Assembly (NCBI GenBank): GCA_944364615.1
Contig: CALVWF010000001.1
Location: forward strand, 65,840-129,839
Direction of reading: 5' to 3'
Length of the DNA stretch: 64,000 nucleotides
Source: an uncultured Clostridia bacterium
GTDB lineage: Bacteria; Bacillota; Clostridia; Christensenellales; CAG-314
The translations under genes and the position numbers were made by a program. Of this stretch, positions 3,030 through 61,953 are shown one piece after another. Below the pieces are notes generated by a model. It had not been told where the DNA came from, ran no database searches, and worked only from the letters and a program-made list of their open reading frames with translations. Numbering within the stretch: position 1 is the first letter of the stretch; each line of letters opens with the position of its first letter.

Positions 3030-3730
3030 TGTCTTTGTCTGACCGCTTCGTATACCACGATACCGCATGCGACCGATGCGTTCAGCGAATTGACCTTGCC
3101 TTTCAATGCAATGGAAATAACCCCGTCGCACAGTGAACGCGTCAGTTTACCCACGCCGCTGCCCTCGCCGCCTATGACAAGCGCAACGTTTCCCCTGAGG
3201 TCTGCTTGGTACATACTCGCTCCGTCCATATCGGCGCAGTATACCCATACGCCCTCGTCGCGAAGTTGCTTTATCGTGTTGTTGATGTTGGTAACGCGCG
3301 CTATCTTGACGTGAGAAACCGCTCCCGCCGAACAGCGTTCCACAGTTTCGTTTACCGCTACCTGTCTGTTTTTACCTATGATTATGCCGTCAACGCCGGC
3401 ACATTCGCAAACTCTGATTATACTGCCGAAATTGTGAGGATCGGTGATCTCTTCCAGAATGACGAGCAACACGTTGTCTTTGTTGTTGCGCGGAAACAGT
3501 TCCTCAACCTCACAGTACGCAAAGTCGGAAACAAAAGCAATACATCCCTGATGTCTGCCCTTGTCGCTTTCGGCGTCGAGCACCGACCTGTCCACCCATT
3601 GCACCTTTATTCCCTTACGGCGCGCAAGCGCGACCACTTCCCCTTTGTCGCCCTTTTCCACCATCACCTTTTCTACCGTTCTGTCCGAACGCAAAGCCTC
3701 CGTTACGGCGTTTTTACCAAAAATTTTCAT
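3026..3730 (-). CDS. rlmB: 23S rRNA (guanosine-2'-O)-methyltransferase RlmB (SpoU/TrmH family)
   Basis: ORF 3026-3910 trimmed to MKIFGKNAV (ATG 3730-3728, ATGA overlap with mrnC stop). Motifs LVILEEITDPHNFGSIIR, ALVIGGEGSG, SLNASVACGIVVYE. Confidence 0.85.
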   Translation of the reverse strand: MKIFGKNAVTEALRSDRTVEKVMVEKGDKGEVVALARRKGIKVQWVDRSVLDAESDKGRHQGCIAFVSDFAYCEVEELFPRNNKDNVLLVILEEITDPHNFGSIIRVCECAGVDGIIIGKNRQVAVNETVERCSAGAVSHVKIARVTNINNTIKQLRDEGVWVYCADMDGASMYQADLRGNVALVIGGEGSGVGKLTRSLCDGVISIALKGKVNSLNASVACGIVVYEAVRQRQ

Positions 3731-4137
3731 ACTGTTTCTCCGAGTAACTGCATCAGACGTTCCGTATTGCCTGTAAGATAAAGATATCCTATAACCGCTT
3801 CGATGCCCGTTGCCATACGGTAATCGGCAAGCGTCTGGTTTTTGGCAACATGATGACTTTTGCCGTTTCTTCCCCGCATAAACACGTCGCGTTCCTCTTC
3901 GGTAAGACAAGGCAAAAGTTTTTCCGCCAACTGCGACTGACTGTGAGCGTTGACCTGACCGCTTGCAAGTTCGTGCATGCGTCCCGCCTTGAAGTCGTGT
4001 TCGTGCACGAGTTTTTCCCTCACTATGAGGCTGTGAACAGCATCTCCTACGTAGGCAAGCACCAACGGATTGACATTGACCGCATTACTCTTAGTCATTG
4101 TTCCGAAAAAATTCATTGAGCCGTCCTTTGCGCCCAT
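3727..4137 (-). CDS. mrnC: Mini-ribonuclease 3 (Mini-III)
   Basis: 136-aa ORF with RNase III-like signature LAYVGDAVHSLIVRE and ATGIEAVIGYLYL. True start may be an internal Met (4116 or 4098). Confidence 0.8.
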   Translation of the reverse strand: MGAKDGSMNFFGTMTKSNAVNVNPLVLAYVGDAVHSLIVREKLVHEHDFKAGRMHELASGQVNAHSQSQLAEKLLPCLTEEERDVFMRGRNGKSHHVAKNQTLADYRMATGIEAVIGYLYLTGNTERLMQLLGETV

Positions 4138-4168
4138 ACAATATAAGTATCGGCAAAATATTTATATA

Positions 4169-4768
4169 TTATTGTACCACATCGGGCTTGCAATTAGCAA
4201 GCAACTTGGACAATGTTACTACAAACAGAGTACATCCCCAATGTTCCGAATGTTCGGTAAAGCCGTACTTCTTGTAAAAGTTGCACCCTTTTACGTTGTC
4301 CGTCGAACACAACAGCATTACAGTGTGCGCTTTTTTGCTTTCGAGATGTCTTGCAAGCGCGTACAGCAATTTTCTTCCCACGCCCTGTCGCTGACATTTT
4401 TCGGTGATATCTATGTGCATATGAGCAACTCCCGAAAGCGCGGTTTTGTTCCAGAACCGTACCGTGCGTTTCTGCGAAATGTACTGTCTGAAACTTAATT
4501 TTCTTACAAGAGGCAGATAAAGACTGCGCATTTTGCGCGAAAAGTCGGCATGATCGTCGCAGGCAAGAATATACCCCGTCACTTCGCCCTCCTGTTCGGC
4601 TACAAAAGTGTTGTCGGTAAAATCGGTATAGTAATCGCTGTACAGCGAAGTCAGCATTGTGCGGTTTGTCGGGGTGTCGTTGTCTTTAAGCCATGACGTT
4701 TCCACACAAATGTCCTGAACGGCGGTTCTATCTTTGCGACAGTATTTTCTGATAGTAAGCATAAACAC
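4169..4768 (-). CDS. GNAT family N-acetyltransferase
   Basis: 199-aa ORF. Acetyl-CoA motif QRQGVGRKLLYALARHL and C-terminal FYKKYGF. Confidence 0.8.
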   Translation of the reverse strand: MFMLTIRKYCRKDRTAVQDICVETSWLKDNDTPTNRTMLTSLYSDYYTDFTDNTFVAEQEGEVTGYILACDDHADFSRKMRSLYLPLVRKLSFRQYISQKRTVRFWNKTALSGVAHMHIDITEKCQRQGVGRKLLYALARHLESKKAHTVMLLCSTDNVKGCNFYKKYGFTEHSEHWGCTLFVVTLSKLLANCKPDVVQ

Positions 4769-4820
4769 CTCCCGTACGATTCAATGCTACCACCTGCTGA
4801 CTTTTCTGTCAATAACGGTA

Positions 4821-4849
4821 TTGAAATACGTCCCGCCGTGTGATATACT
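4821..4849 (+). promoter_or_regulatory. Sigma-A-type promoter for the 4870 gene
   Basis: TTGAAA (4821-4826), 17-nt spacer, TGaTATACT extended -10 (TATACT 4844-4849), about 20 nt before AGGGAGG RBS. Confidence 0.55.
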
Positions 4850-4869
4850 TTAACAGGGAGGTAGAAGGA

Positions 4870-5907
4870 ATGAACCAACAGATTAAACTGACTCCGGGCA
4901 GACTTCTCGATGACAAGGGATGTCTTGTACAGGCGGGGTACGCAACCTCGATGGTAAAGCAGTACGACAGAAAGGACATTAAAGGACACGCATTTGCAAT
5001 AAAGGAGTGGGATTACTACATAGTAACCGACGGTCACCGTGCGGTTGCGCTTACCGTAGCCGACAACTCGTACATGTCGCTGGTGTCGGCAAGTTATCTT
5101 GACTTAACACAACCCCGTTACAAGACTACAAGTAAAATGGACTTTTTTACATTCGGGAAAACAGGACTGCCGTCCACGTTGGAAAAAGGCGACGTGATTT
5201 ACCGCTCCAAACGCGTTGATATGGAGTTTGCCAACGACGGAACGGCAAGGCGACTTTACTGCAGATTCAACGATTTTGCAGAGGGCGAAACACTGACCTG
5301 CGAATTTAAAGTTACCGACCAACCGAAAGAATACATGACAATAGCAATGCCATTTAAAGAAAAGAAACACGCGTTCTATTACAACGCAAAAGTAAACTGT
5401 ATGACTGCGGAAGGATACGCGCGGCTGGGAAAGGAAGAATACCTGTTCGACAAAAGAAACTCGCTTGCCACGTTGGATTGGGGCAGAGGCATCTGGACGT
5501 ACAAAAACACATGGTACTGGAGCAGTCTGCAAGCATACGACGACAACGGCAAGACAATAGGATTCAATCTCGGCTACGGTTTCGGAGACACTTCCGCTGC
5601 CACGGAAAACATGCTGTTTTACGACAAAAAGGCATACAAACTGAACGACGTCACCTTCAATATACCCAAAGACGACAAAGGCAACGACGACTTTATGTCG
5701 CCGTGGACGTTTACTTCGTCGGACAACGGCGTAGACCTGACCTTTACCCCTGTGCTGGACAGAAAGGACATCACCGATCTTAAAGTTCTGGCAAGCATAC
5801 AGCACCAGGTGTTCGGATATTTCAACGGCAGTATAACCGCGGAAGGCGTGACGGTAAAGTTTGACAACAAACCGGGTTTTGCGGAAAAAGTGTTCAACAA
5901 GTGGTAA
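4870..5907 (+). CDS. DUF2804-like protein
   Basis: ORF 4840-5907 trimmed to ATG 4870 behind AGGGAGG. KEWDYYIV and a beta-rich body recall DUF2804. Family assignment from memory only. Confidence 0.55.
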   Translation: MNQQIKLTPGRLLDDKGCLVQAGYATSMVKQYDRKDIKGHAFAIKEWDYYIVTDGHRAVALTVADNSYMSLVSASYLDLTQPRYKTTSKMDFFTFGKTGLPSTLEKGDVIYRSKRVDMEFANDGTARRLYCRFNDFAEGETLTCEFKVTDQPKEYMTIAMPFKEKKHAFYYNAKVNCMTAEGYARLGKEEYLFDKRNSLATLDWGRGIWTYKNTWYWSSLQAYDDNGKTIGFNLGYGFGDTSAATENMLFYDKKAYKLNDVTFNIPKDDKGNDDFMSPWTFTSSDNGVDLTFTPVLDRKDITDLKVLASIQHQVFGYFNGSITAEGVTVKFDNKPGFAEKVFNKW

Positions 5908-5925
5908 AAGGGCAAAACATTACAT

Positions 5926-5958
5926 CAAAAAAGCAGTTGCGATTTGCAACTGCTTTTT
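5926..5958. terminator. Bidirectional rho-independent terminator
   Basis: aaaaAAGCAGTTGC-gattt-GCAACTGCTTttt between convergent genes ending at 5907 (+) and 5960 (-). Confidence 0.8.
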
Positions 5959-5959
5959 A

Positions 5960-6235
5960 TCAGTCTTTGGGCAACATCCTGACGTAACCGCCGGGACCGC
6001 GATGCACCGCTCTCGAAACTCTGGACAGCGTGGCGGAAGATATTCCCGTTTGTTCGATTATTTCGCTGTAAGTTTTACCTTCCACGATAAGTTTGGCAGC
6101 CATTGCCCGCTGTGCCATCTGCTCCACTTCCTGAAAGGTGCACAGATCTTCCAGCAACTGTCTGCAATCTTCCACTGTCTTGCAATTGAGCAAGGTGCGG
6201 TACAGAACATCCTGCATGTGTTCGTAATCTTTCAT
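5960..6235 (-). CDS. TrpR-like YerC/YecD family protein
   Basis: 91-aa ORF. LLEDLCTFQEVEQMAQRAMAAKLIVEGKTYSEIIEQTGISSATLSRVSRAV matches the YerC/YecD pattern. Confidence 0.8.
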   Translation of the reverse strand: MKDYEHMQDVLYRTLLNCKTVEDCRQLLEDLCTFQEVEQMAQRAMAAKLIVEGKTYSEIIEQTGISSATLSRVSRAVHRGPGGYVRMLPKD

Positions 6236-55464: not shown

Positions 55465-57060
55465 TCATCCTTTAAAATCTCCGCCGCCGAGGAATTCTTT
55501 TACCAACGAGTTGGCGGGAACGATGTCTTCGGGAATTTCCTTGAAATTTTTCAGTATATCCATCAGTCGTTGCGCTTCGGCGTATTCGGGCACGTCGTTG
55601 GTAATTTCTTTGAGCAGCGCCATTGCCTTGTGTTTAAGCACCGCCAATTCGTAAATAAGCGAAGTGTTGAATATACTGTCGGCGTCTTCCTGGAATGGGA
55701 ATATGTTTTGCTGCTCGCCTTTGTTGACGTTGGGCCAAGTCTTGATTGTGTTAAGCGCGCTGTACGCCCTGAACTGATGGTCTCTTACGATTCTTCTGAT
55801 AAACCTGGTGTCCGTTGTGGATATTCTGTTAAAGGCGTCAATGTTGAGCACCGTCAGTGCGCTGATGTACACCTTGTACTTTCTGTCTTTGGGAATACGC
55901 GCCGTCAGTTTGTCGTTGAGGCAGTGTATTCCTTCTATTACCAGCACTTCCTCGTCGGAAATTCTGGTCTTTTTGCCGTTGAACACTTTTACGCCGTTTT
56001 TAAAATCGAACTCGGGCATTTCCACTTCTTCGCCGTTGAGCAATCCCAGCAGATCCTGATTGAACAGGTCGATGTCTATTGCTTCAAGACATTCGAAATC
56101 GGGCTCGCCCTTTTCATTCAAAGGCGTCTGACCTCTGTCAACGAAATAATTGTCAACGGAAATAGTTACGGGTTTTAGACCGTTGAGTCGCAACTGTATA
56201 CCCAGTCTCTGAGCAAACGTCGTCTTGCCCGATGAGGACGGTCCCGCAATAAGCACTATCTTGACGCCCTTTCTCCTGGCAATCTGGTCGGCGATGTTGG
56301 CAATCTTCTTTTCGTGCAACGCTTCCGACAACAGTATCAGTTCGCGTATCTTGTTGTTTTCTATAACCGTGTTCAACTTGTGAATGGTTCCGACATTCAA
56401 GATCTTGTATATTGTTTCGTATTCTTCCAATGCCCATTGCAGTTTTTTGGTCTCTTTGAATACAGGCAAAACGTTTACGTTGTCCGAACTGGGGTAACGC
56501 AACAAAAAGCCCTTGCCGTATTTTACAAGATCGAATGTACGTGTGGCGCCCGTGTGCGTTGCTATTGTCTCGTAAATGCAATTGTAGTAATCTTCGCAGT
56601 AATACAGATTGATTGTTTCGTTTTCCTCTACGTCCAGTTGCAATCTGCCTTTCGCGGTTTTTTCGCTGTTGTAAAATTCCGTCGCCTCTGCCCTCGTCAT
56701 CACGACTTTTCTTATTTCCAGATCGGCGTCTATTATTTCCTGCATTCTGTCCTTTACCGTCTGCAACATTTCTTCGGTGACGTCCATATTGTCCAAAGTG
56801 CAGTACATTGCGTTTGACAACTGGTAGTCCACCGTAAGACGTGCACGGCGGAAAGTTTCGAAAAATGCCTTGCTCATCGTGTAAGTAAGGGTGGCACGGT
56901 ATATCTTCATACCCTCTTTGCAATTGATGTCTATGAGAGATACCTTTTCGTTACCTTCTATTTCGTCGTTAAGGTTACTGTAAGTGTTGTTGACCGTAGC
57001 CCCCACTACGGGGTACTTGCTTTGCGCTATTTGCTGTTGATACTTTTCCGATATTTTCAT
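55465..57060 (-). CDS. Nucleoside (uridine-type) kinase with N-terminal ThrRS/TGS-like extension
   Basis: 531-aa ORF. P-loop IAGPSSSGKTTFAQRL and uridine-kinase-like body. Long N-terminal domain. Confidence 0.75.
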   Translation of the reverse strand: MKISEKYQQQIAQSKYPVVGATVNNTYSNLNDEIEGNEKVSLIDINCKEGMKIYRATLTYTMSKAFFETFRRARLTVDYQLSNAMYCTLDNMDVTEEMLQTVKDRMQEIIDADLEIRKVVMTRAEATEFYNSEKTAKGRLQLDVEENETINLYYCEDYYNCIYETIATHTGATRTFDLVKYGKGFLLRYPSSDNVNVLPVFKETKKLQWALEEYETIYKILNVGTIHKLNTVIENNKIRELILLSEALHEKKIANIADQIARRKGVKIVLIAGPSSSGKTTFAQRLGIQLRLNGLKPVTISVDNYFVDRGQTPLNEKGEPDFECLEAIDIDLFNQDLLGLLNGEEVEMPEFDFKNGVKVFNGKKTRISDEEVLVIEGIHCLNDKLTARIPKDRKYKVYISALTVLNIDAFNRISTTDTRFIRRIVRDHQFRAYSALNTIKTWPNVNKGEQQNIFPFQEDADSIFNTSLIYELAVLKHKAMALLKEITNDVPEYAEAQRLMDILKNFKEIPEDIVPANSLVKEFLGGGDFKG

Positions 57061-57342: not shown

Positions 57343-58296
57343 CTATTCGACGGTAATATAGCGACCTCTTCCCTTGATTTTGTCTGCCGAGTACTTGCAA
57401 CCGCATTTGTCTCCGAAGTAAAGCAACTTTAACGAGTCCGCAAAAGGCTTTCTGAACACCACTGCATTGCCTTTTTTACCCAGTTCCAGAAGCAGAGTGA
57501 ATATTTCGGAGTCAGCAGGATGCCAGTGCGTGGAGTAACTTTTGCCGCCTATACATGCGAAGAATTCAAGAACACATTCCGAATCGACATATACGTATAA
57601 TGTAAAACCGTCAAAATTCCAGACAAGCGTGTCGCCGTCGACGCTGTACTTTCCACCGAGGTCGGGAACGCTTTCCAACATTTCGTACAACTGCCGTGCG
57701 TTACGTGGTACAAAAGGCTCAACGCATTGGTAACGTGGATCGAATGCATGCAGGTAACCTGCCGTAAGTACTATCGATTCGGGCAAAACCCGCCCGACGG
57801 TAAACGTTTCGTCAAACAACGAGCAATCGAGCAGAACCTTGACGGTAAAATCAGCCGTCAGACCGCCGTCGAGTAAAGCGATTCTGAACTGTAACCATTG
57901 ATCGAACTCCATAGATGAATCCTTTTCGTCGTATTTTCCCCGCCTTACAATCATGCACTTACCATTTTCGCCAAAGGACAAAAAGTCAAAATCGGGAAAA
58001 ATGTATAAATCGCCTCCGTACAAAAAATAACTGCGACTTGTATTCCTGTGAAAAACGCATTGTACGGAAAGATCGCGCTGTCTGACGCCTTTATAAAACA
58101 TGTATTGCGGCGAATAAGTTACGTTACTTTTATACGGTATGTGAAATTGTTTGTAATAATCGCTTCTCCTATATTGTACCGCCTCGGCAAGGGACGCAAA
58201 AGGGAAAATAAACGCAATGAAAACAAATGCAACAACTATTATCGGAAAACACACAATAAACATCAACACATACAGTAAGACTTTATACCATTTCAT
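57343..58296 (-). CDS. Hypothetical membrane-anchored protein
   Basis: ORF 57343-58350 trimmed to MKWYKVLLYVLMFIVCFPIIVVAFVFIAFIF (ATG 58296 behind AAAGGAAG). One N-terminal TM region then about 270 aa with no motif I recognise. Confidence 0.55.
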   Translation of the reverse strand: MKWYKVLLYVLMFIVCFPIIVVAFVFIAFIFPFASLAEAVQYRRSDYYKQFHIPYKSNVTYSPQYMFYKGVRQRDLSVQCVFHRNTSRSYFLYGGDLYIFPDFDFLSFGENGKCMIVRRGKYDEKDSSMEFDQWLQFRIALLDGGLTADFTVKVLLDCSLFDETFTVGRVLPESIVLTAGYLHAFDPRYQCVEPFVPRNARQLYEMLESVPDLGGKYSVDGDTLVWNFDGFTLYVYVDSECVLEFFACIGGKSYSTHWHPADSEIFTLLLELGKKGNAVVFRKPFADSLKLLYFGDKCGCKYSADKIKGRGRYITVE

Positions 58297-58944
58297 ATTC
58301 TCGCACTTCCTTTCATTAATTAAAACACAAAAAAAATTATTTTGCAACATTATGTCAATGAGATGTTGCTTTGCCCCTTTCAGCGTTTGAAAAAGCGTGA
58401 CGGTATCGACAGATTGTAATGAAAAAGCGACAATGCTTCAAGCGTCAGAAGTGTACGGAAACAGTCTGTTGCAGGTTTTAAGTCGACGATAAATCTTCTT
58501 CCTATTACTGCGGTAACGCACGACTTTTTTTAAAACGTTTTCCGGCACATTGGTGCACGACGACACTTCAAACGTTACGCAACCGACAACACACAACCCC
58601 GAAACAAAAACGGAAAGCCAAAAGATTTAAAACCGACAAACCGTATTTTAATTCAAAAAATACGTTGAAACGTATGGTAAAAGCATACGACAGTAAACGG
58701 GCTCGGTAAGGTCAGATTCTTTCGGTAAATAATTATTGTGCAAATGAAATACGAAAAACATTCAAACGCAAAAACCGCAAAAGTGTGCCTCGACTGACCG
58801 CCTGTGCACTGCATAAACACACCAATACCTGACTTACAACCGATGTGCAGGATACAGCAATACCGCTCTCAGTAAGAGCGGTACGCATTGAATACCGTTA
58901 AATGCAGAACAAAGGCTGTTTGCAACCACAAAACGATTCAATAG

Positions 58945-58973
58945 AAAAAGGGCGCATTGTGTGCGCCCTTTTT
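58945..58973. terminator. Bidirectional terminator at the left edge of the AT-rich island
   Basis: aaaaaGGGCGCA-ttgtg-TGCGCCCttttt. About 90 nt downstream of the NTase-like gene on the minus strand. Confidence 0.85.
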
Positions 58974-59006
58974 AATCGATTTGTTTTTGTGCTATCGCTT
59001 TAATAC

Positions 59007-59066
59007 AAAATGACACCCCTACTTGCAAAACGACACCCTTACTAGATAAACGAAACCCCTAAATTA
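59007..59066. repeat. Left-end array: three tandem 20-bp repeats
   Basis: aaaatgacacccctacttgc / aaaacgacacccttactaga / taaacgaaacccctaaatta (16/20 and 13/20 identities between neighbours). The last unit overlaps the stop codon of the NTase-like gene. Confidence 0.8.
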
Positions 59067-59726
59067 AGACTTTTTTCTATGATTGTATCGATCATAAACT
59101 TCGTTAACTGCTTCGATATAACAAATAAACGATGGATGATTATAATCATTTCTTGTTAAATACATATTTTTCTTATTTAAGTACCCTTCTCTTACTTCAT
59201 TCCAATAGTTATGGTTTTTAAGCCAATCAACTTTTTTATTTAAATTATATGAATTACGTCCTTCATTCCAAATCCAGACATCATTGCGTGTATTACCAGT
59301 TTTCTGATGAATTAGTCTCCACCATGAGCCATTTGAATCTTCAACAACGATTCCTAAGTCAATGCTAAATCTTGTCTTATTTCCACTTGTAAAATTTCGA
59401 TTTTCAGTAGTTAAAGCAGACGTAGAATCTTGGCAATCACCCCATCCATTTCTGTTTAAGATTACATTAAACTTTTTCCTTATATATTCTTTGATTCCTT
59501 GACAATCATTAATATTCCAAGAACGAATAATAGAAATATTGTAATCTAAATCAACTGGTTCAAATTCGTTTTGAGTTTCTAAATTTCTAGAACCACTGCC
59601 AACACTATGTGCCACAACTATCATCTTGCCTTCGTTATTAATTTCTTGAACCAACTGATTAACTAAATTAGAGCAAACTGATCTTAACTTCTTTAGAAAT
59701 TCTTTATCTTCTATATAATGATACAT
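59064..59726 (-). CDS. Pol-beta-superfamily nucleotidyltransferase-like protein (220 aa)
   Basis: GGAGG RBS. hGS at G43-S44 (HSVGSGSR), DxD at D59/D61 (PVDLDYNI) and a third acidic strand FSIDLGIVVED (D123), in the spacing of minimal NTase folds. W/N/Y-rich helical C-terminal half. Family not identified. Confidence 0.55.
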   Translation of the reverse strand: MYHYIEDKEFLKKLRSVCSNLVNQLVQEINNEGKMIVVAHSVGSGSRNLETQNEFEPVDLDYNISIIRSWNINDCQGIKEYIRKKFNVILNRNGWGDCQDSTSALTTENRNFTSGNKTRFSIDLGIVVEDSNGSWWRLIHQKTGNTRNDVWIWNEGRNSYNLNKKVDWLKNHNYWNEVREGYLNKKNMYLTRNDYNHPSFICYIEAVNEVYDRYNHRKKS

Positions 59727-59801
59727 ACTTAAAAACCTCCTAAATAAATATTATCCCCATGCCTACCATTTGAAGTATGTATCTTTTCTTCAAATCCTAT
59801 T

Positions 59802-59830
59802 ATTATACATTTCAATTACCAATTTGTCGA
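59802..59830 (-). promoter_or_regulatory. Sigma-A promoter of the NTase-like gene
   Basis: Minus strand TCGACA (59830-59825), 17-nt spacer, TATAAT (59807-59802). Confidence 0.6.
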
Positions 59831-59884
59831 TGGTTATCGTTCATTTTCATTATTTCAATGATTTCACATTAAAACTTGAAATGC

Positions 59885-59925
59885 AAAAAAACGCACGAAA
59901 TGACACTAAATCACTTCAATGCGTT
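59885..59925 (-). terminator. Rho-independent terminator after the 2-TM gene
   Basis: Minus strand AACGCA-tt-GAAgTGA-loop-TCAtTTC-g-TGCGTT followed by TTTTT. Separates the NTase-like gene from the upstream pair. Confidence 0.65.
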
Positions 59926-60029
59926 TATATTTGTTATCAATGTAATTATTTAAACCGAAATCACTATTATTATTTCTTATTGGAAGTATACTAAATTTTA
60001 ATTTAAGAAAGATAACTATAATTTCAATT

Positions 60030-60500
60030 CTATCTATAAAGTACAACAATTTTAGGATCTGACAAATCTTGTTCTCTAACAAAGCATTCTGCGTAATCTC
60101 CAACTTGATATGAAGTAAAATATTTTGAGAATATTCTATATACAAATCTAATTCTAACTTTTTTATTTAAATTATCTGTTTCGATTTTTCCATACATTAC
60201 ACTACCTATGGATCTTTCTAGGATTTTAACATGAATCAATTTTCCTTTTGAATTAATAAATGGCAAAAATCTATATAGATATATAATCAAAGAAGCAATA
60301 AAACAAATAGCAAACAATACATCTATCAATATTAGAACACTAAATATTTCATTAACTGCTTCTTGATTAGCATTTGTGGAATCAAAAGACTTTAAATAAA
60401 ATATCAAGCATAAAAAGCAAATAAATGTTATTAGTTGAATTGCTAAGGAAATAATCATCCAATAAAAACCGTACATTCTTTTAATATTGAATTTTTCCAT
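60030..60500 (-). CDS. Two-TM protein with small beta-rich C-terminal domain
   Basis: 156-aa ORF. TM1 about residues 10-36 and TM2 about 52-79, then about 75 aa of alternating beta-like sequence ending YQVGDYAECFVREQDLSDPKIVVLY. GGAG RBS inside the upstream gene's end. Confidence 0.6.
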   Translation of the reverse strand: MEKFNIKRMYGFYWMIISLAIQLITFICFLCLIFYLKSFDSTNANQEAVNEIFSVLILIDVLFAICFIASLIIYLYRFLPFINSKGKLIHVKILERSIGSVMYGKIETDNLNKKVRIRFVYRIFSKYFTSYQVGDYAECFVREQDLSDPKIVVLYR

Positions 60501-60502
60501 AT

Positions 60503-61039
60503 TTAAACTCCATATTTATAATTTATGTTTCCAACAACCATACTACCACGGTTATTCGTGTTGTTAACATAGTTTGTTCTTATAATGAATCTTATCTTTG
60601 TAGCGCCAGATTCGAATACATCTACATAATTTGTTAGGTTATCTTTATTAGTTGACATCTCTTTTGGATTAAAAATTCTTTTGGTTTTCCAACCATTATT
60701 ATAATATTCTAAAGTAATTGAACTTTTTTTAATAAGTGATTCATCATCACTCCAAAGGGCAATATTGTAATTGAATTCAAAAATACTAACATTTTCATCA
60801 ATCAAGTTTTCTTCTTCAATTTCAACTTCTTCTTTTTCCTGTGGAATATAATTATCAATATAAGACATACTTGATAAATTTTCCACATCATTACCTTTTG
60901 TAAGTTTTAATAGCTTTTTATCAACAACAACTTCCTGGGAATTATAAAACCCCTTATTAAAAGTCGATAATGTGCTAGAGGATACAATTCCCATTCCTAA
61001 AATCATTAAAAGAACCAATTTTTTTAAATGTTTTTTCAT
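60503..61039 (-). CDS. Secreted or membrane-anchored protein with acidic linker and beta-rich C-terminal domain
   Basis: 178-aa ORF. Signal/anchor MKKHLKKLVLLMILGMGIVSSS, acidic stretch QEKEEVEIEEENLIDEN, then Asn/Tyr-rich domain. Stop lies 2 nt before the next start. Confidence 0.55.
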   Translation of the reverse strand: MKKHLKKLVLLMILGMGIVSSSTLSTFNKGFYNSQEVVVDKKLLKLTKGNDVENLSSMSYIDNYIPQEKEEVEIEEENLIDENVSIFEFNYNIALWSDDESLIKKSSITLEYYNNGWKTKRIFNPKEMSTNKDNLTNYVDVFESGATKIRFIIRTNYVNNTNNRGSMVVGNINYKYGV

Positions 61040-61080
61040 TAATAAAACCTACTATGTCTTGGTTAGTCGGACCTAACTAA

Positions 61081-61108
61081 AGTATACTACTTCCTTTTTA
61101 TATGTCAA
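61081..61108 (-). promoter_or_regulatory. Sigma-A promoter of the secreted-protein/2-TM pair
   Basis: Minus strand TTGACA (61108-61103), 16-nt spacer, TATACT (61086-61081). Confidence 0.55.
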
Positions 61109-61159
61109 TAATTCTAATAGTGATTTCACATTGGAATATAAAAAACAAATTCATTTAAC

Positions 61160-61339
61160 TCACAAAAAATTAGAAATTATAAGCATTGGATACTCTTGCT
61201 CCAATAATGACTTAACACCGTACTGATTGTCAGAAACTTCCTTATCGTGAATTTGTGCCTCCTCCCCGAAAATGCCAATTACTCCGTGGGAATGTTTATG
61301 CTGTTCAGTTAATCTCTTCGATTGATTCTTTTTTGCCAT
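61160..61339 (-). CDS. Small hypothetical protein (59 aa)
   Basis: Track ORF 61160-61357 trimmed to MAKKNQSKRL (ATG 61339, GAGGTG 6 nt upstream). The longer form starts at an ATG overlapping the HTH stop by 1 nt. No family recognised. Confidence 0.4.
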   Translation of the reverse strand: MAKKNQSKRLTEQHKHSHGVIGIFGEEAQIHDKEVSDNQYGVKSLLEQEYPMLIISNFL

Positions 61340-61356
61340 TCTCTTCACCTCATTCA

Positions 61357-61551
61357 TTAATTATCTAGTTTCATGCCAATCTCGTTAAAGAGAACGACAA
61401 ATTTCTTCTTGGTATCCATAGTTGGTTCAAATCTACCTGTTTCCCATCTACAAACGGAAACATAACTAACATTTAATATTTTAGCTAGTTCTTCCTGTGT
61501 TAAGCATTTTCTTTCACGGTATTCTTTTATTTTCTTTGCATAATCAAACAT
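61357..61551 (-). CDS. XRE family HTH protein (Cro/CI-like, 64 aa)
   Basis: LTQEELAKILNVSYVSVCRWETGRFEP HTH_3 pattern. GAGGTG RBS. Confidence 0.8.
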   Translation of the reverse strand: MFDYAKKIKEYRERKCLTQEELAKILNVSYVSVCRWETGRFEPTMDTKKKFVVLFNEIGMKLDN

Positions 61552-61650
61552 ATGGTCACCTCAAATGGTTATCATTATTTTAACACAAACAAGTTTAAGT
61601 TTCGATATTTTCATGCAGCTTTGATGAGATTTTTTCTCAAAAAGAGTGAG

Positions 61651-61749
61651 TTGAAAATGGGGTGTCATTTATATAGTAGGGTATCGTTTATCTAGTAGAC
61701 TAACGTTTCTCTAGTAAGGGTATCGTTTATCTAGTAGGACTAAAATCTT
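61651..61749. repeat. Right-end array: five tandem 19-21-bp repeats, inverted relative to the left array
   Basis: ttgaaaatggggtgtcattta / tatagtagggtatcgttta / tctagtagactaacgtttc / tctagtaagggtatcgttta / tctagtaggactaaaatctt. Unit 4 (61710-61729) matches the reverse complement of left unit 2 at 18/20. Confidence 0.8.
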
Positions 61750-61835
61750 AAATTCCGTAGGTTCGAACCAATTCATATCTACTAGCAAAACGCAATTTAT
61801 AAAAAAATGCCCGATTTCTCGGACAAATATCGTTA

Positions 61836-61855
61836 ATTTTGACACCCTTACTTTG
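61836..61855. repeat. Solitary repeat copy in left-array orientation, 23 nt from the tRNA 3' end
   Basis: attttGACACCCTTACTttg. The 12-mer GACACCCTTACT (61841-61852) is identical and co-oriented with 59032-59043. Confidence 0.75.
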
Positions 61856-61877
61856 TATCAAAATGTTAGTTATAAGA

Positions 61878-61953
61878 TGGTGCTGGCGAGAGGATTCGAA
61901 CCTCCGGCCTATTGATTACGAATCAATTGCTCTACCGACTGAGCCACGCCAGC
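61878..61953 (-). tRNA. tRNA-Thr (anticodon CGU), CCA encoded
   Basis: Manual fold of GCTGGCGTGGCTCAGTCGGTAGAGCAATTGATTCGTAATCAATAGGCCGGAGGTTCGAATCCTCTCGCCAGCACCA. 7-bp acceptor, U8, D arm GCTC/GAGC, anticodon stem ATTGA/TCAAT with loop TTCGTAA, T arm GGAGG-TTCGAAT-CCTCT (one G-U), discriminator A. Confidence 0.9.

Follow-up and report, generated by a model that had tools for sequence, protein, structure and literature searches.

Organization of the cassette and its repeats

The window, a 64-kb stretch of DNA from an uncultured Clostridia bacterium, contains an inserted AT-rich cassette of 2896 bp (58982..61877), as defined by comparison of the empty and the occupied site. Its cargo genes all read from the right end towards the left end. 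Nearest to the right end lies a 64-aa XRE/HTH_3 gene (61357-61551, minus strand; Pfam HTH_3, E 1.4e-8), followed by a 65-aa ORF (61160-61357, minus strand) with an EcoRI-like N-terminus only, which aligns with profile positions 1-38 of 257 in Pfam EcoRI (E 1e-6) and with positions 6-59 of 283 in PADLOC REase_II (E 1.4e-13). Judging from these profile matches, the two look like a decayed restriction-modification module; the XRE homologues at two other loci (L019 and L041) precede ORFs that resemble type I restriction-modification subunits when their translations are judged by eye. The next two proteins, one of 178 aa (60503-61039, minus strand) and one of 156 aa (60030-60500, minus strand), appear secreted or lipoprotein-like and membrane-like, respectively, labels that come from reading the translations only, and neither matches a known family, while the 156-aa family recurs in other cassettes. 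The last gene of the cassette (59064..59726, minus strand) encodes a 220-aa protein that was termed NTase-like in a preliminary description of this DNA. This protein has no match in Pfam, NCBIfam, PADLOC or PDB sequences; a GSGS...DLD string is visible in its translation, and in 8 loci its homologues likewise lie proximal to the left end.

Three head-to-tail 20-bp units make up the left array (59007..59066, plus strand): unit 1 (59007-59026) reads AAAATGACACCCCTACTTGC, unit 2 (59027-59046) reads AAAACGACACCCTTACTAGA and unit 3 (59047-59066) reads TAAACGAAACCCCTAAATTA, exactly as given in the preliminary description, whose claim of a tandem array is also borne out by Tandem Repeats Finder (59006-59061, period 20, 2.8 copies, 80% matches, score 70). 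Units 1 and 2 match the core GACACCCYTACT without a mismatch (59012-59023 and 59032-59043); in unit 3 it is degenerate (59052-59063; GAAACCCCTAAA). The stop codon of the 220-aa ORF falls within unit 3 and a hairpin with a T-run is found at 58945-58973, both in agreement with the earlier account, which had also reported a matching inverted array at the other end of the island. The latter is present as a right-end distal array of four units at 61659..61738 on the minus strand, inverted relative to the left array, with a period of 19-20 bp (Tandem Repeats Finder: 4.1 copies, score 100) and a third unit whose degeneracy is conserved. Complementarity between the arms 59018-59052 and 61704-61738 is 86%. 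An extra unit adjoins the right junction, with its core at 61841-61852 in the orientation of the left array.

In the 64-kb window, matches to the core with 0-1 mismatch are confined to the island, except for one 1-mismatch match at 56884. When up to two mismatches are allowed, 12 matches are obtained against 4.6 expected, a number reached in 0 of 100 shuffles; the enrichment of the core in the island is above chance, and the core is not dispersed across the window as a randomly scattered motif would be. The left array starts 25 bp inside the left junction (58981/58982), and these 25 bp form a conserved half-site, whose distal part is overlapped by the 5' part of unit 1. The array is hence sub-terminal, with a recombinase half-site between, and does not lie exactly at the junction as had been considered earlier. 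On the right side, 139 bp separate the array from the junction.

The long-form right-end spacer (61760..61793) includes a palindrome, GGTTCGAACC (61760-61769), that resembles a tRNA T-arm, and the string CTACTAGCAAAACGC (61779-61793), which equals the unit 1/unit 2 junction of the left end. One relative (L061, 85-220) is a cargo-less cassette of 136 bp in which the CTACTAGCAAAACGC string is the point of fusion between a left and a right end. An intrinsic terminator for minus-strand transcripts (61798..61825, minus strand), detected in a terminator scan and composed of the stem TGTCCGAGAAATCGGGCA and a T-run, falls within 75 bp conserved in all right ends and replaces the native tRNA-Thr terminator displaced by the insertion.

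Insertion site and att half-sites

Near-identical strains carry either an intact empty site or the 2896-bp insert, with 2903 bases between the anchors in occupied contigs vs 7 in island-negative contigs; ERZ24773240 and ERZ28615193 are examples of island-positive samples. Empty-site contigs with identical flanks read ...AATCGATT|TGGTGCTGG..., and the only ambiguity in the cassette boundary is the shared dinucleotide TG (58982-58983 and 61878-61879), which corresponds to the CA of the tRNA-Thr CCA end. Apart from this TG, no target duplication is seen in the comparison of empty and occupied sites; the insertion is precise, without duplication or loss of target bases, as expected of elements moved by large serine recombinases (LSRs). 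Homology with other cassettes breaks off precisely at 58982 and 61879, and the GC content is 25-33% in the cassette vs 45-50% in its flanks. The island-negative relatives L005, L006, L008 and L009 are free of the repeats, as a reading of the left array as an island end needs. The chromosomal side of the left junction (58945..58981) comprises the native bidirectional terminator (58945-58973) and then 8 bp, AATCGATT, that directly follow the tRNA in empty-site strains. The 19 extra bases at the left junction (AGCACAAAAACAAATCGAT) were first read as a displaced tRNA end or a duplication, a reading that was rejected because the empty site of L008 and L009 (AATCGAT) and the family alignment identify them as the conserved half-site of the element. 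The expected circle junction is TTAGTTATAAGATGTTTTTGTGCTATCG, and the empty site is TTTAATCGATTTGGTGCTGGCG.

The left-end att half-site (58982..59011, plus strand) consists of the crossover TG followed by TTTTTGTGCTATCGCTTTAATACAAAAT (family consensus TG TCTTTGTGCTATCGCTTTGATACAAAA) and is the best-conserved part of 45 non-redundant left ends, with a mean of 1.66 bits per position. At the right end, the proximal unit and half-site (61836..61877, plus strand) comprise the core GACACCCTTACT at 61841-61852 and then the half-site TTTGTATCAAAATGTTAGTTATAAGA, and are conserved at 1.5-2 bits per position across 29 right ends. The left half-site and the reverse complement of the right one are identical at 17/27 positions in the window and at 19/27 in the family consensus, the latter compared by eye on the consensus lines. 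Joined together, the ends form an imperfect palindrome of ~56 bp around TG that has the shape of an LSR attP and is laid out as TTGTATCAAA-N15-TG-N15-TTTGATACAA, with the crossover at TG. Both features by which LSR sites are recognized, an imperfectly palindromic attP of ~50 bp and a central dinucleotide identical in attB, are present.

The target is a tRNA-Thr (CGT) gene (61878..61953, minus strand), identified by ARAGORN and Rfam (tRNA, 76 bits), with its position confirmed by the empty site. The first base of the cassette lies directly after the CCA end of this gene, and the terminal CA of the tRNA appears on the opposite strand as the crossover TG. Wherever a right end lies beside a tRNA gene, it abuts the CCA end (9/9 loci), and seven different tRNAs are used in this way: Thr-CGT, Arg-TCG, Arg-TCT, Leu-TAG, Leu-GAG (twice), Trp and Met. 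The far junction contains no tRNA fragment, only TG, and an att core within the tRNA was rejected on the basis of the empty site and the family alignment. In the tRNA half, the T-arm motif GAYTCGAA lies 5 bp nearer the centre than GATACAAA does in both attP halves, and for serine integrases the same 5-bp offset is on record for their zinc-ribbon-domain motif (PMC3783163). The T-arm match, at 6/8 positions and at one of several possible offsets, is only suggestive. In the Rfam scan, the tRNA alone scored above threshold, and weak sRNA matches at 58895-59006 represent the terminator hairpin.

Distribution of the cassette family and its recombinases

Ends and units of this kind were found at 53 loci in many genomes of uncultured gut Bacilli/Acholeplasmatales, and the cassettes often stand in tandem with unrelated cargo. 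At no fewer than 17 loci, all within large chromosomal contigs, tandem cassettes meet in an attP-like junction that joins the right end of one to the left end of the next (...TTATAAGA|TG|TCTTTGTGC...). Nearly all left ends, including those outside the selection of the search pattern, contain two to three units in the same register. Conservation decreases from 1.35 through 1.03 to 0.70 bits per position over the successive units of the left end and to 0.35 beyond them, which places the units between the att core and background; the values for units 1 and 2 are inflated, as the search pattern selected these units in most left ends, and the conservation could partly reflect recent common descent of the ends. 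The long-form right end, with three to five distal units, accounts for about half of the right ends in the family, and in a few left ends the units have decayed. At least part of the repeat set is thus dispensable for persistence, given that about half of the right ends do without the distal array and that some left units have decayed. The units are confined to element ends in the window and in the prophage stretches examined, and an internal-deletion variant (L010) keeps them.

Annotated phage and plasmid records contain no match to the att/array region, the tRNA part alone being matched, and this family of gut-bacterial cassettes and prophages is widespread and apparently undescribed. Covariation of the unit variants GACACCC, GATACCC and GAAACCC between the two ends of a cassette was considered and dropped, as inspection by eye gave no clear pattern; the same holds for unit variants compared by eye with recombinase variants among the few autonomous elements.

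The search for the motif beyond the window, a check proposed in the preliminary description, led to a linked recombinase. Two adjacent genes at L012 and L014 encode proteins of 437 and 524 aa with Pfam Resolvase, Recombinase and Zn_ribbon_recom domains; in L014 the two genes occupy 4797-6110 and 3219-4793. The distance between this pair and the left end is 0.2-3 kb in L012, L014, L052, L054 and L057. In the reverse test, which started from the recombinase, a left end with units was found 190-900 bp downstream in 4/4 informative relatives with at least 90% identity (L088, L089, L091 and L092). The left-end array follows the two LSR genes in 9/9 informative loci. Autonomous relatives are tailed prophages with two adjacent LSR genes, the viral contigs that bear the recombinase pair being partial. 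In L074 and L079, contigs that share the tail genes, these ends were not found within reach, and the more distant recombinase relatives L070 (34% identity) and L071 (44%) have no comparable arrays in the sequence seen. Neither the window cassette nor the rest of the 64-kb window contains a recombinase gene, which makes this cassette a non-autonomous member at best; it is assumed to have been moved in trans. With respect to the earlier proposal that the repeats are a transposase- or recombinase-binding array, the mobile island end and its linked recombinase are retained, whereas the Tn7 or Mu type is not.

Proposed role of the repeats

The repeats may be sub-terminal cis-acting sites of a small mobile cassette with LSR attP ends on which LSRs act in trans, a reading to which we assign about an even chance. 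The two cassette ends represent the two halves of an LSR attP, and the prophage recombinases (437 and 524 aa) would supply activity in trans to the window cassette. The units lie directly outside the half-sites, three pointing inward at the left end and one, of identical absolute orientation, adjoining the right half-site, and would bind protein in phase, with one site per two helical turns. Candidate binders are either recombinase or a small protein encoded beside them, such as a 134-aa helix-turn-helix/zinc-ribbon protein (phrog_2308; L014 6331-6735) or a 64-aa ORF (L014 6162-6356). With such binding, each cassette boundary would become a complex att site that could pair or orient the ends for excision, integration or cassette shuffling. 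This would depart from the usual pattern, as canonical large serine integrases integrate without accessory proteins or auxiliary DNA (PMC3783163), and the units may therefore serve another purpose. What argues for functional sites is the register kept beside the core across unrelated cargo and many species, together with the intermediate conservation of the units, their restriction to element ends and their retention in L010, and a precedent is provided by the serine recombinase TnpA of IS607/IS1535, which assembles an end complex on helically phased sub-terminal repeats (PMC6188088). From the sequence comparisons, accessory protein-binding sites are the best inference for the units. The comparisons establish the boundaries, the att architecture, the family, the targeting of tRNAs and the link to the recombinase pair, while protein binding by the units, the identity of the binder and its control over recombination are inferred.

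Several other explanations of the units have to be weighed against this one. It seems unlikely that they are transcriptional signals, either operators or insulators for cargo or recombinase expression or an outward promoter, TTGCAA-17-TATTAA in unit 1, driving a short junction-crossing transcript to the next right-end or chromosomal terminator. The right array does lie upstream of the first cassette gene, with the cargo reading from the right to the left end, and a conserved terminator is located ~55 bp inside every right end; the left array, however, sits at the 3' end of the last gene, which is no position for a promoter, the gene beside the right array varies by cassette, and many right ends have no array. 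The promoter-like string noticed earlier exists and has a counterpart, TTGCTA-17-TATCAA, that is conserved in the family, but the outward site is not called in the promoter scan, the only candidate for the XRE operon (61605-61577) lies outside the repeats, and the hexamers coincide with the att half-site and a unit, so that their conservation is already explained. An operator array for XRE or a C-protein was likewise rejected because the gene beside the array varies between cassettes. The island XRE protein, earlier suggested as a binder, does not fit that role: of the cassettes seen, just those of the window, L019 and L041 have an XRE gene beside the array and that of L053 an XRE-like one, and the XRE gene goes along with restriction-modification cargo.

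Iterons and parC-type centromeres typically consist of three to five direct repeats, each 19-20 bp long, within AT-rich DNA. The units match this pattern, and a circular cassette would bring the arrays together around the junction, where a helper Rep or ParR-type protein could replicate or segregate the excised circle. Against such a function, raised in the preliminary description as iterons, no Rep or Par gene was found linked in the cassettes or near the recombinases, the register is fixed to the att core whatever the cargo, units flank this core in every cassette and are retained in cassettes down to 136 bp, and none occur elsewhere in the stretches of the autonomous prophages examined, which makes it improbable. 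Similarly improbable is a functionless origin of the units as inherited decoration, for instance old duplications of the outer half-site carried along with the att sites. Such an origin would suit the overlap of unit 1 with the half-site and the likeness of the units to the outer part of the half-site (TTTGATACAAAACGAC vs TACTAGATAAACGAA), as well as the decay of units in some left ends and the lack of the distal array in half of the right ends; yet the number, 20-bp register and core of the units are kept across many species and unrelated cargo, conservation drops to 0.35 bits beyond unit 3, and the third unit of the right array is degenerate alike in many elements. Transposase-binding arrays at the ends of a DDE transposon of the Tn7, Mu or Tn402 type, the first two of which had been named in the preliminary description, can be discounted almost entirely. 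Multiple sites of ~20-22 bp are inverted between the ends at ~20 bp spacing, with three sites at one end and four contiguous ones at the end nearer the conserved gene, and the element starts with TGT, but the junction-side right unit has the left-end orientation. There is no 5-bp target-site duplication, and the right end finishes in ...TTATAAGA, not in ACA/CA, so that 5'-TG...CA-3' termini are absent. Neither a DDE transposase (TnsB/MuA/TniA) nor a TnsC/TniB-like gene is found in the five island proteins, and none occurs among the scanned L012 and L014 proteins or the most widespread ORF families of related loci. Instead, the two ends combine into a palindromic att site whose crossover spans 2 bp, and the adjoining enzymes are two LSRs. 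An island of the tyrosine-integrase tRNA type was also considered and set aside, with no tyrosine integrase found and no duplicated 3' fragment of the tRNA.

Beyond the role of the units as cis-acting sites, a wider and more tentative possibility is a serine-recombinase "cassette platform" in uncultured gut Bacilli/Acholeplasmatales, in which a prophage-borne recombinase pair would recognise the generic T-arm plus CCA end of many tRNA genes and all boundaries would be complex att sites. The phased accessory repeats would then follow the layout seen in the res sites of resolvases, and cargo-only cassettes, many with restriction-modification or other accessory genes, could be integrated, accumulated in tandem, released again and reshuffled by enzymes acting in trans. 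If true, this would represent an integron-like outcome reached by serine-recombinase chemistry.

Comparison with known systems

SCC elements of staphylococci and enterococci, mobilized by CcrA/CcrB, share with the present family two adjacent LSRs of ~440 and 525 aa in A-then-B order and insertion at the 3' end of a conserved gene that is left undisrupted. Tandem cassettes at one site, as in composite SCC islands, recombinase-less att-flanked cassettes (pseudo-SCC) and accessory or defence cargo are further likenesses (PMC6222049). The recombinases described here differ in that their best NCBIfam matches are to CcrB, at 167 and 137 bits vs a cut-off of 900, with no CcrA, CcrB or CcrC equivalogs. 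In addition, the target is the CCA end of several tRNAs and not rlmH (orfX) as in SCC, autonomous members are tailed prophages, and phased arrays of 20-bp units flank the att core. To our knowledge, SCC has no equivalent of such arrays.

Phage large serine integrases such as those of A118 (LI), Bxb1 and phiC31 resemble the system in their attP of ~50 bp, an imperfect palindrome with a non-palindromic central dinucleotide shared with attB, in the location of the integrase gene beside attP at the prophage end, in the lack of an insertion duplication and in the 5-bp shift of the outer motif between attP and attB (PMC3783163). Here, in contrast, there are two recombinase genes, a single conserved attB half (the tRNA) and several target tRNAs, and the outer motif lies ~4 bp further from the centre than with LI integrase. 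The phased repeats outside the core are a further difference, as none are needed by those enzymes (PMC3783163). The IS607 family (IS1535 TnpA) likewise involves a serine recombinase without terminal inverted repeats or target duplication and has short sub-terminal motifs, directly repeated in helical phase, as a platform for the assembly of multiple protein dimers (PMC6188088). The IS607 enzyme, however, is small, has an N-terminal winged-helix, shows minimal target specificity and uses a motif spacing of ~10 bp, whereas the present recombinases have the domain order of LSRs and a specific target.

In res accessory sites and the arm sites of tyrosine-integrase attP, extra protein-binding repeats beside the crossover impose architecture and direction, and a run of three adjoining direct repeats on a single arm is reminiscent of P'1-P'3 and the Xis sites in lambda. 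Accessory sites of res differ in being inverted-repeat dimer sites bound by a small resolvase, and arm-type sites belong to tyrosine integrases, none of which is linked here.

According to a 2014 survey of tRNA-gene islands, serine integrases are not known to target tRNA genes (PMC4383910). Large serine integrases are prized for genome engineering because they are thought to need two short sites only and no auxiliary DNA (PMC3783163). The present family would differ in its precise CCA-end insertion at many tRNAs, its tandem cargo-only cassettes, its phased repeats on both sides of the crossover and its replacement terminator for the tRNA. If the repeats are accessory sites, they would offer a new handle on partner choice and direction in serine recombinases and would point to a route of gene flow, for restriction-modification and other accessory genes, in poorly known human-gut bacteria.

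Tycheposons of Prochlorococcus and streptococcal CIMEs also integrate at tRNA genes, form tandem junctions, include cargo-only elements that use the integrase of a relative and are polymorphic for presence and absence within a population (bioRxiv 10.1101/2020.12.28.424599). Their integrases are mostly tyrosine integrases (910/937) that recombine inside the tRNA gene and leave a duplicated tRNA fragment, whereas in the present gut Bacilli-type hosts the crossover takes place at the terminal CA and no tRNA fragment is duplicated; island finders that search for such fragments would therefore miss these elements.

Boundaries and repeat arrays of the island

Public assemblies, searched with a flanking 182-aa kinase-like protein, yielded both island-positive and island-negative contigs of the same organism, of which 23 were read (~15 positive and ~8 negative; L numbers denote fetched public contigs and loci). 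The empty site reads tRNA...CACCA|AATCGATTAAAAAGGG in L008 and L009 and is the same with one SNP in L005 and L006. Because 2903 bases separate the common anchors in occupied contigs versus 7 in empty ones, the insert amounts to 2896 bp (58982-61877), next to a tRNA-Thr (CGT) gene on the minus strand (61878-61953). No target bases are duplicated or lost, and the sole boundary ambiguity is a TG at both junctions, which on the opposite strand is the CA of the tRNA CCA end. In BLAST comparisons with loci of the same family, homology begins exactly at 58982 (L037, 96% over 1583 bp) and stops exactly at 61879. One contig of the window species (L010) has lost 889 bp internally (window 60636-61524), including the XRE gene, the endonuclease fragment and most of a 178-aa gene, and keeps both repeat-bearing ends. 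Just outside the island, a 335-aa ORF (57343-58350) without a Pfam or NCBIfam match occurs in both island-positive and island-negative strains and is therefore chromosomal.

The three 20-bp units lie head to tail precisely where the preliminary description placed them: unit 1 at 59007-59026 (AAAATGACACCCCTACTTGC), unit 2 at 59027-59046 (AAAACGACACCCTTACTAGA) and unit 3 at 59047-59066 (TAAACGAAACCCCTAAATTA), the last of which, as also reported there, contains the stop codon of the 220-aa ORF. Tandem Repeats Finder gives this left array a period of 20, 2.8 copies and a score of 70. The inverted array described at the opposite end is equally real (61659-61738; period 19, 4.1 copies, score 100), and a repeat finder pairs arms 59018-59052 and 61704-61738 at 86% complementarity. 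Within the 64-kb window, the core GACACCCYTACT with 0-1 mismatch is confined to the island region apart from one 1-mismatch match at 56884; with ≤2 mismatches there are 12 matches versus 4.6 expected, a count reached by no shuffle. The left array had been taken to form the island end; it does belong to the terminus, but comparison of empty and occupied sites shows that it starts 25 bp inside the left junction. The right array stops 139 bp inside the right junction, and an extra unit (core 61841-61852), oriented as the left array and 25 bp from that junction, is flanked by the tRNA and a minus-strand terminator (61798-61825). The distal right array is inverted with respect to the left one. The core-proximal units of both ends share the same absolute orientation, so that the two arms of the site are distinguishable. 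GC content between the arrays is 25-33% versus 45-50% in the flanks.

A family of tandem cassettes

Viral contigs scanned for the exact pattern TACTAGATAAACGAWACCC gave two matches, L012 and L014, both with the three-unit array and the adjoining outer 25 bp of the window. A survey with a two-unit pattern, limited to one genome per species, recovered 53 loci, nearly all in genome bins of uncultured gut Bacilli, Acholeplasmatales or 'Mollicutes', with a median GC of 31%. In every locus, the left end consists of TG TCTTTGTGCTATCGCTTTRATACAAAA and then two or three units in constant 20-bp register. All right ends have their last 75 bp in common, made up of a unit, TTTGTATCAAAATGTTAGTTATAAGA and a terminator hairpin. 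Roughly half of the right ends are longer, with a further 3-5 inverted units, the palindrome GGTTCGAACC and the string CTACTAGCAAAACGC. Right and left ends are joined directly (...TTATAAGA|TG|TCTTTGTGC...) in at least 17 loci, and these joins are located within chromosomal contigs of up to 157 kb, which indicates that cassettes of 0.14-5 kb are stacked in tandem. The left part of the window cassette recurs with 96% identity within a different tandem array in L037, an 'uncultured Mollicutes' bin. As the cassette GC (25-33%) is unlike that of the host (~47%) and close to that of most family-carrying genomes (~31%), its composition suggests transfer from low-GC Bacilli-type bacteria.

A 136-bp 'empty' cassette (L061, 85-220) has lost all cargo and retains both att halves, with left-end unit 1 fused to the right end at the common string CTACTAGCAAAACGC. 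The GGTTCGAACC palindrome, which lies at 61760-61769 between the inverted array and the terminator and in the long-form right ends of L016, L025, L027, L030, L034, L035 and others, reads the same as a tRNA T-arm consensus on either strand; it may be an additional site that binds the recombinase or acts as a decoy.

Annotated phage and plasmid records contain no match to the att/array region. The searchable full-text literature yielded no account of such a cassette family, although other literature may hold one; among published concepts, tycheposons (bioRxiv 10.1101/2020.12.28.424599) and the SCC and enterococcal cassette chromosomes (PMC6222049) come closest. Mobile elements integrated by serine recombinases are known; the targeting, the tandem cargo-only cassettes and the accessory repeats, if such they are, set this family apart.

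Recombinases and attachment site

L012 and L014 each contain two adjacent genes (437/438 and 524 aa) whose products both have Resolvase, Recombinase and zinc-ribbon domains, and L052, L054 and L057 have the same pair at a distance of 0.2-3 kb from the left end. The motif therefore has recombinase-linked copies beyond the window, a linkage the preliminary description had proposed to look for. Conversely, when a profile of the 524-aa recombinase was scanned over metagenome contigs, the left end and units were located 190-900 bp downstream in four of four informative relatives with at least 90% identity (L088, L089, L091, L092). In NCBIfam, the best-scoring names (CcrB, XisF, CcrC and CcrA) fall far short of their cut-offs, and the pair resembles SCC recombinases just at this level. 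Tape-measure, Dit, tail and holin families mark the autonomous elements as tailed prophages, and at four loci a 64-aa ORF and a 134-aa helix-turn-helix/zinc-ribbon protein (phrog_2308) are immediately upstream of the pair. No further units are present in the window or in readable prophage stretches. Since neither the window cassette nor the remainder of the window contains a recombinase gene, this cassette is a non-autonomous relative.

At a junction, the right and left ends combine into an imperfect palindrome, TTGTATCAAA-N15-TG-N15-TTTGATACAA, with half-sites (the conserved ~25 bp between junction and first unit) identical at 19/27 positions in the family consensus, by eye, and 17/27 in the window. 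The central dinucleotide TG is non-palindromic and the same in the chromosomal site. With these features, the end structure has the anatomy of a large-serine-recombinase attP/attB pair (PMC3783163). Integration of the cassette by a serine recombinase is highly probable.

Targeting of tRNA genes

Right ends that are beside a tRNA gene rather than joined to a cassette all abut its CCA end. The targets comprise Thr-CGT (window), Arg-TCG, Arg-TCT, Leu-TAG, Leu-GAG (twice), Trp-CCA and Met-CAT; no tRNA was called in the sequence after the right end in L027, L028 and L029. The tRNA halves have in common TG-G-N11-12-GGAYTCGAACC, which is the T-arm, and the distance of GAYTCGAA from the crossover is 5 bp shorter than that of GATACAAA in both attP halves. 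In serine integrases, the outer motif of attB is moved 5 bp inward relative to attP (PMC3783163), and a match at 6/8 positions is suggestive of the T-arm motif being the attB counterpart of the outer attP motif. The second attB half is whatever sequence trails the tRNA, often its terminator. With the crossover at its last two bases, the tRNA is left whole by the insertion, which duplicates no part of it. A terminator supplied by the element lies ~55 bp downstream of the tRNA and is conserved inside the right end of every element (window 61798-61825; L016-L065); it is oriented so as to stop transcripts from the tRNA and replaces the native terminator (58945-58973) pushed away by insertion. The conserved tRNA trailer of ~70 nt could be a small RNA.

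Possible function of the units

The units are directly outside both half-sites, in a register that is constant among cassettes from many species with unrelated cargo. Conservation is 1.66 bits per position in the half-site, 1.35, 1.03 and 0.70 in units 1-3 (units 1-2 being partly chosen by the search pattern) and 0.35 beyond. That the units are functionless relics is conceivable but less likely, being hard to square with this conserved register and the sharp drop past unit 3. Regulation of a neighboring gene is likewise disfavored: the gene adjoining the right array differs among cassettes, the XRE protein, a conceivable operator-binding partner, goes along with restriction-modification cargo, and the outward promoter previously read in unit 1 did not register in a promoter scan and coincides with the half-site. 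The Tn7- or Mu-like (DDE) transposon ends and iterons favored in the preliminary description are also disfavored. Against the former, there is no duplication or transposase and the termini are wrong; against iterons, and equally against a centromere, no Rep or Par gene is linked and the register between units and att core is constant.

Whether the units serve as accessory sites of att is an even call. Most economically, they would bind, in phase, a protein supplied in trans, either recombinase of the pair or a small neighboring protein being candidates. The bound protein would lend the att site additional architecture; it might, for instance, pair cassette ends for excision or mark sites where recombination is permitted. 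In the IS607 family, a serine recombinase assembles on helically phased sub-terminal repeats (PMC6188088), and resolvase res sites and the arms of tyrosine integrases are functional parallels. Counting against accessory sites, canonical large serine integrases require no auxiliary DNA (PMC3783163), half of the right ends are without the distal array, and some left-end units are decayed.

Cargo and distant relatives

Cargo varies between cassettes and includes the window's 220-aa and 156-aa families along with diverse other ORFs, several of which, judged from their translations, resemble a cytosine methyltransferase, an ATPase and antitoxin-like, kinase-like and ABC-like proteins. The 220-aa 'NTase-like' protein (59064-59726) contains a GSGS...DLD string and matches nothing in Pfam, NCBIfam, PADLOC or PDB sequences; in eight loci (L037, L047, L048, L054 and others), a member of this family is the gene closest to the left end. 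At 61160-61551, a 64-aa XRE gene precedes a 65-aa ORF that aligns with EcoRI-like type II restriction enzymes over just their first ~40-55 residues; the two look like a decayed controller-plus-endonuclease module. Two ORFs after XRE homologues in L019 and L041 resemble, by eye, subunits of type I restriction-modification systems.

Relatives of the 524-aa recombinase with ~46% identity (L093-L135) occur in human-gut metagenomes 0.4-4 kb from the CCA end of tRNA-Met (for example, L106 11575-11949 and L118 3379-3765), with the recombinase-proximal end facing the tRNA. Their repeats differ, being three copies of TTTTGTCC with a 10-bp period, and a terminator hairpin containing TTGTATCAA adjoins tRNA-Met. 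Within this recombinase clade, tRNA ends may be a more widespread target.
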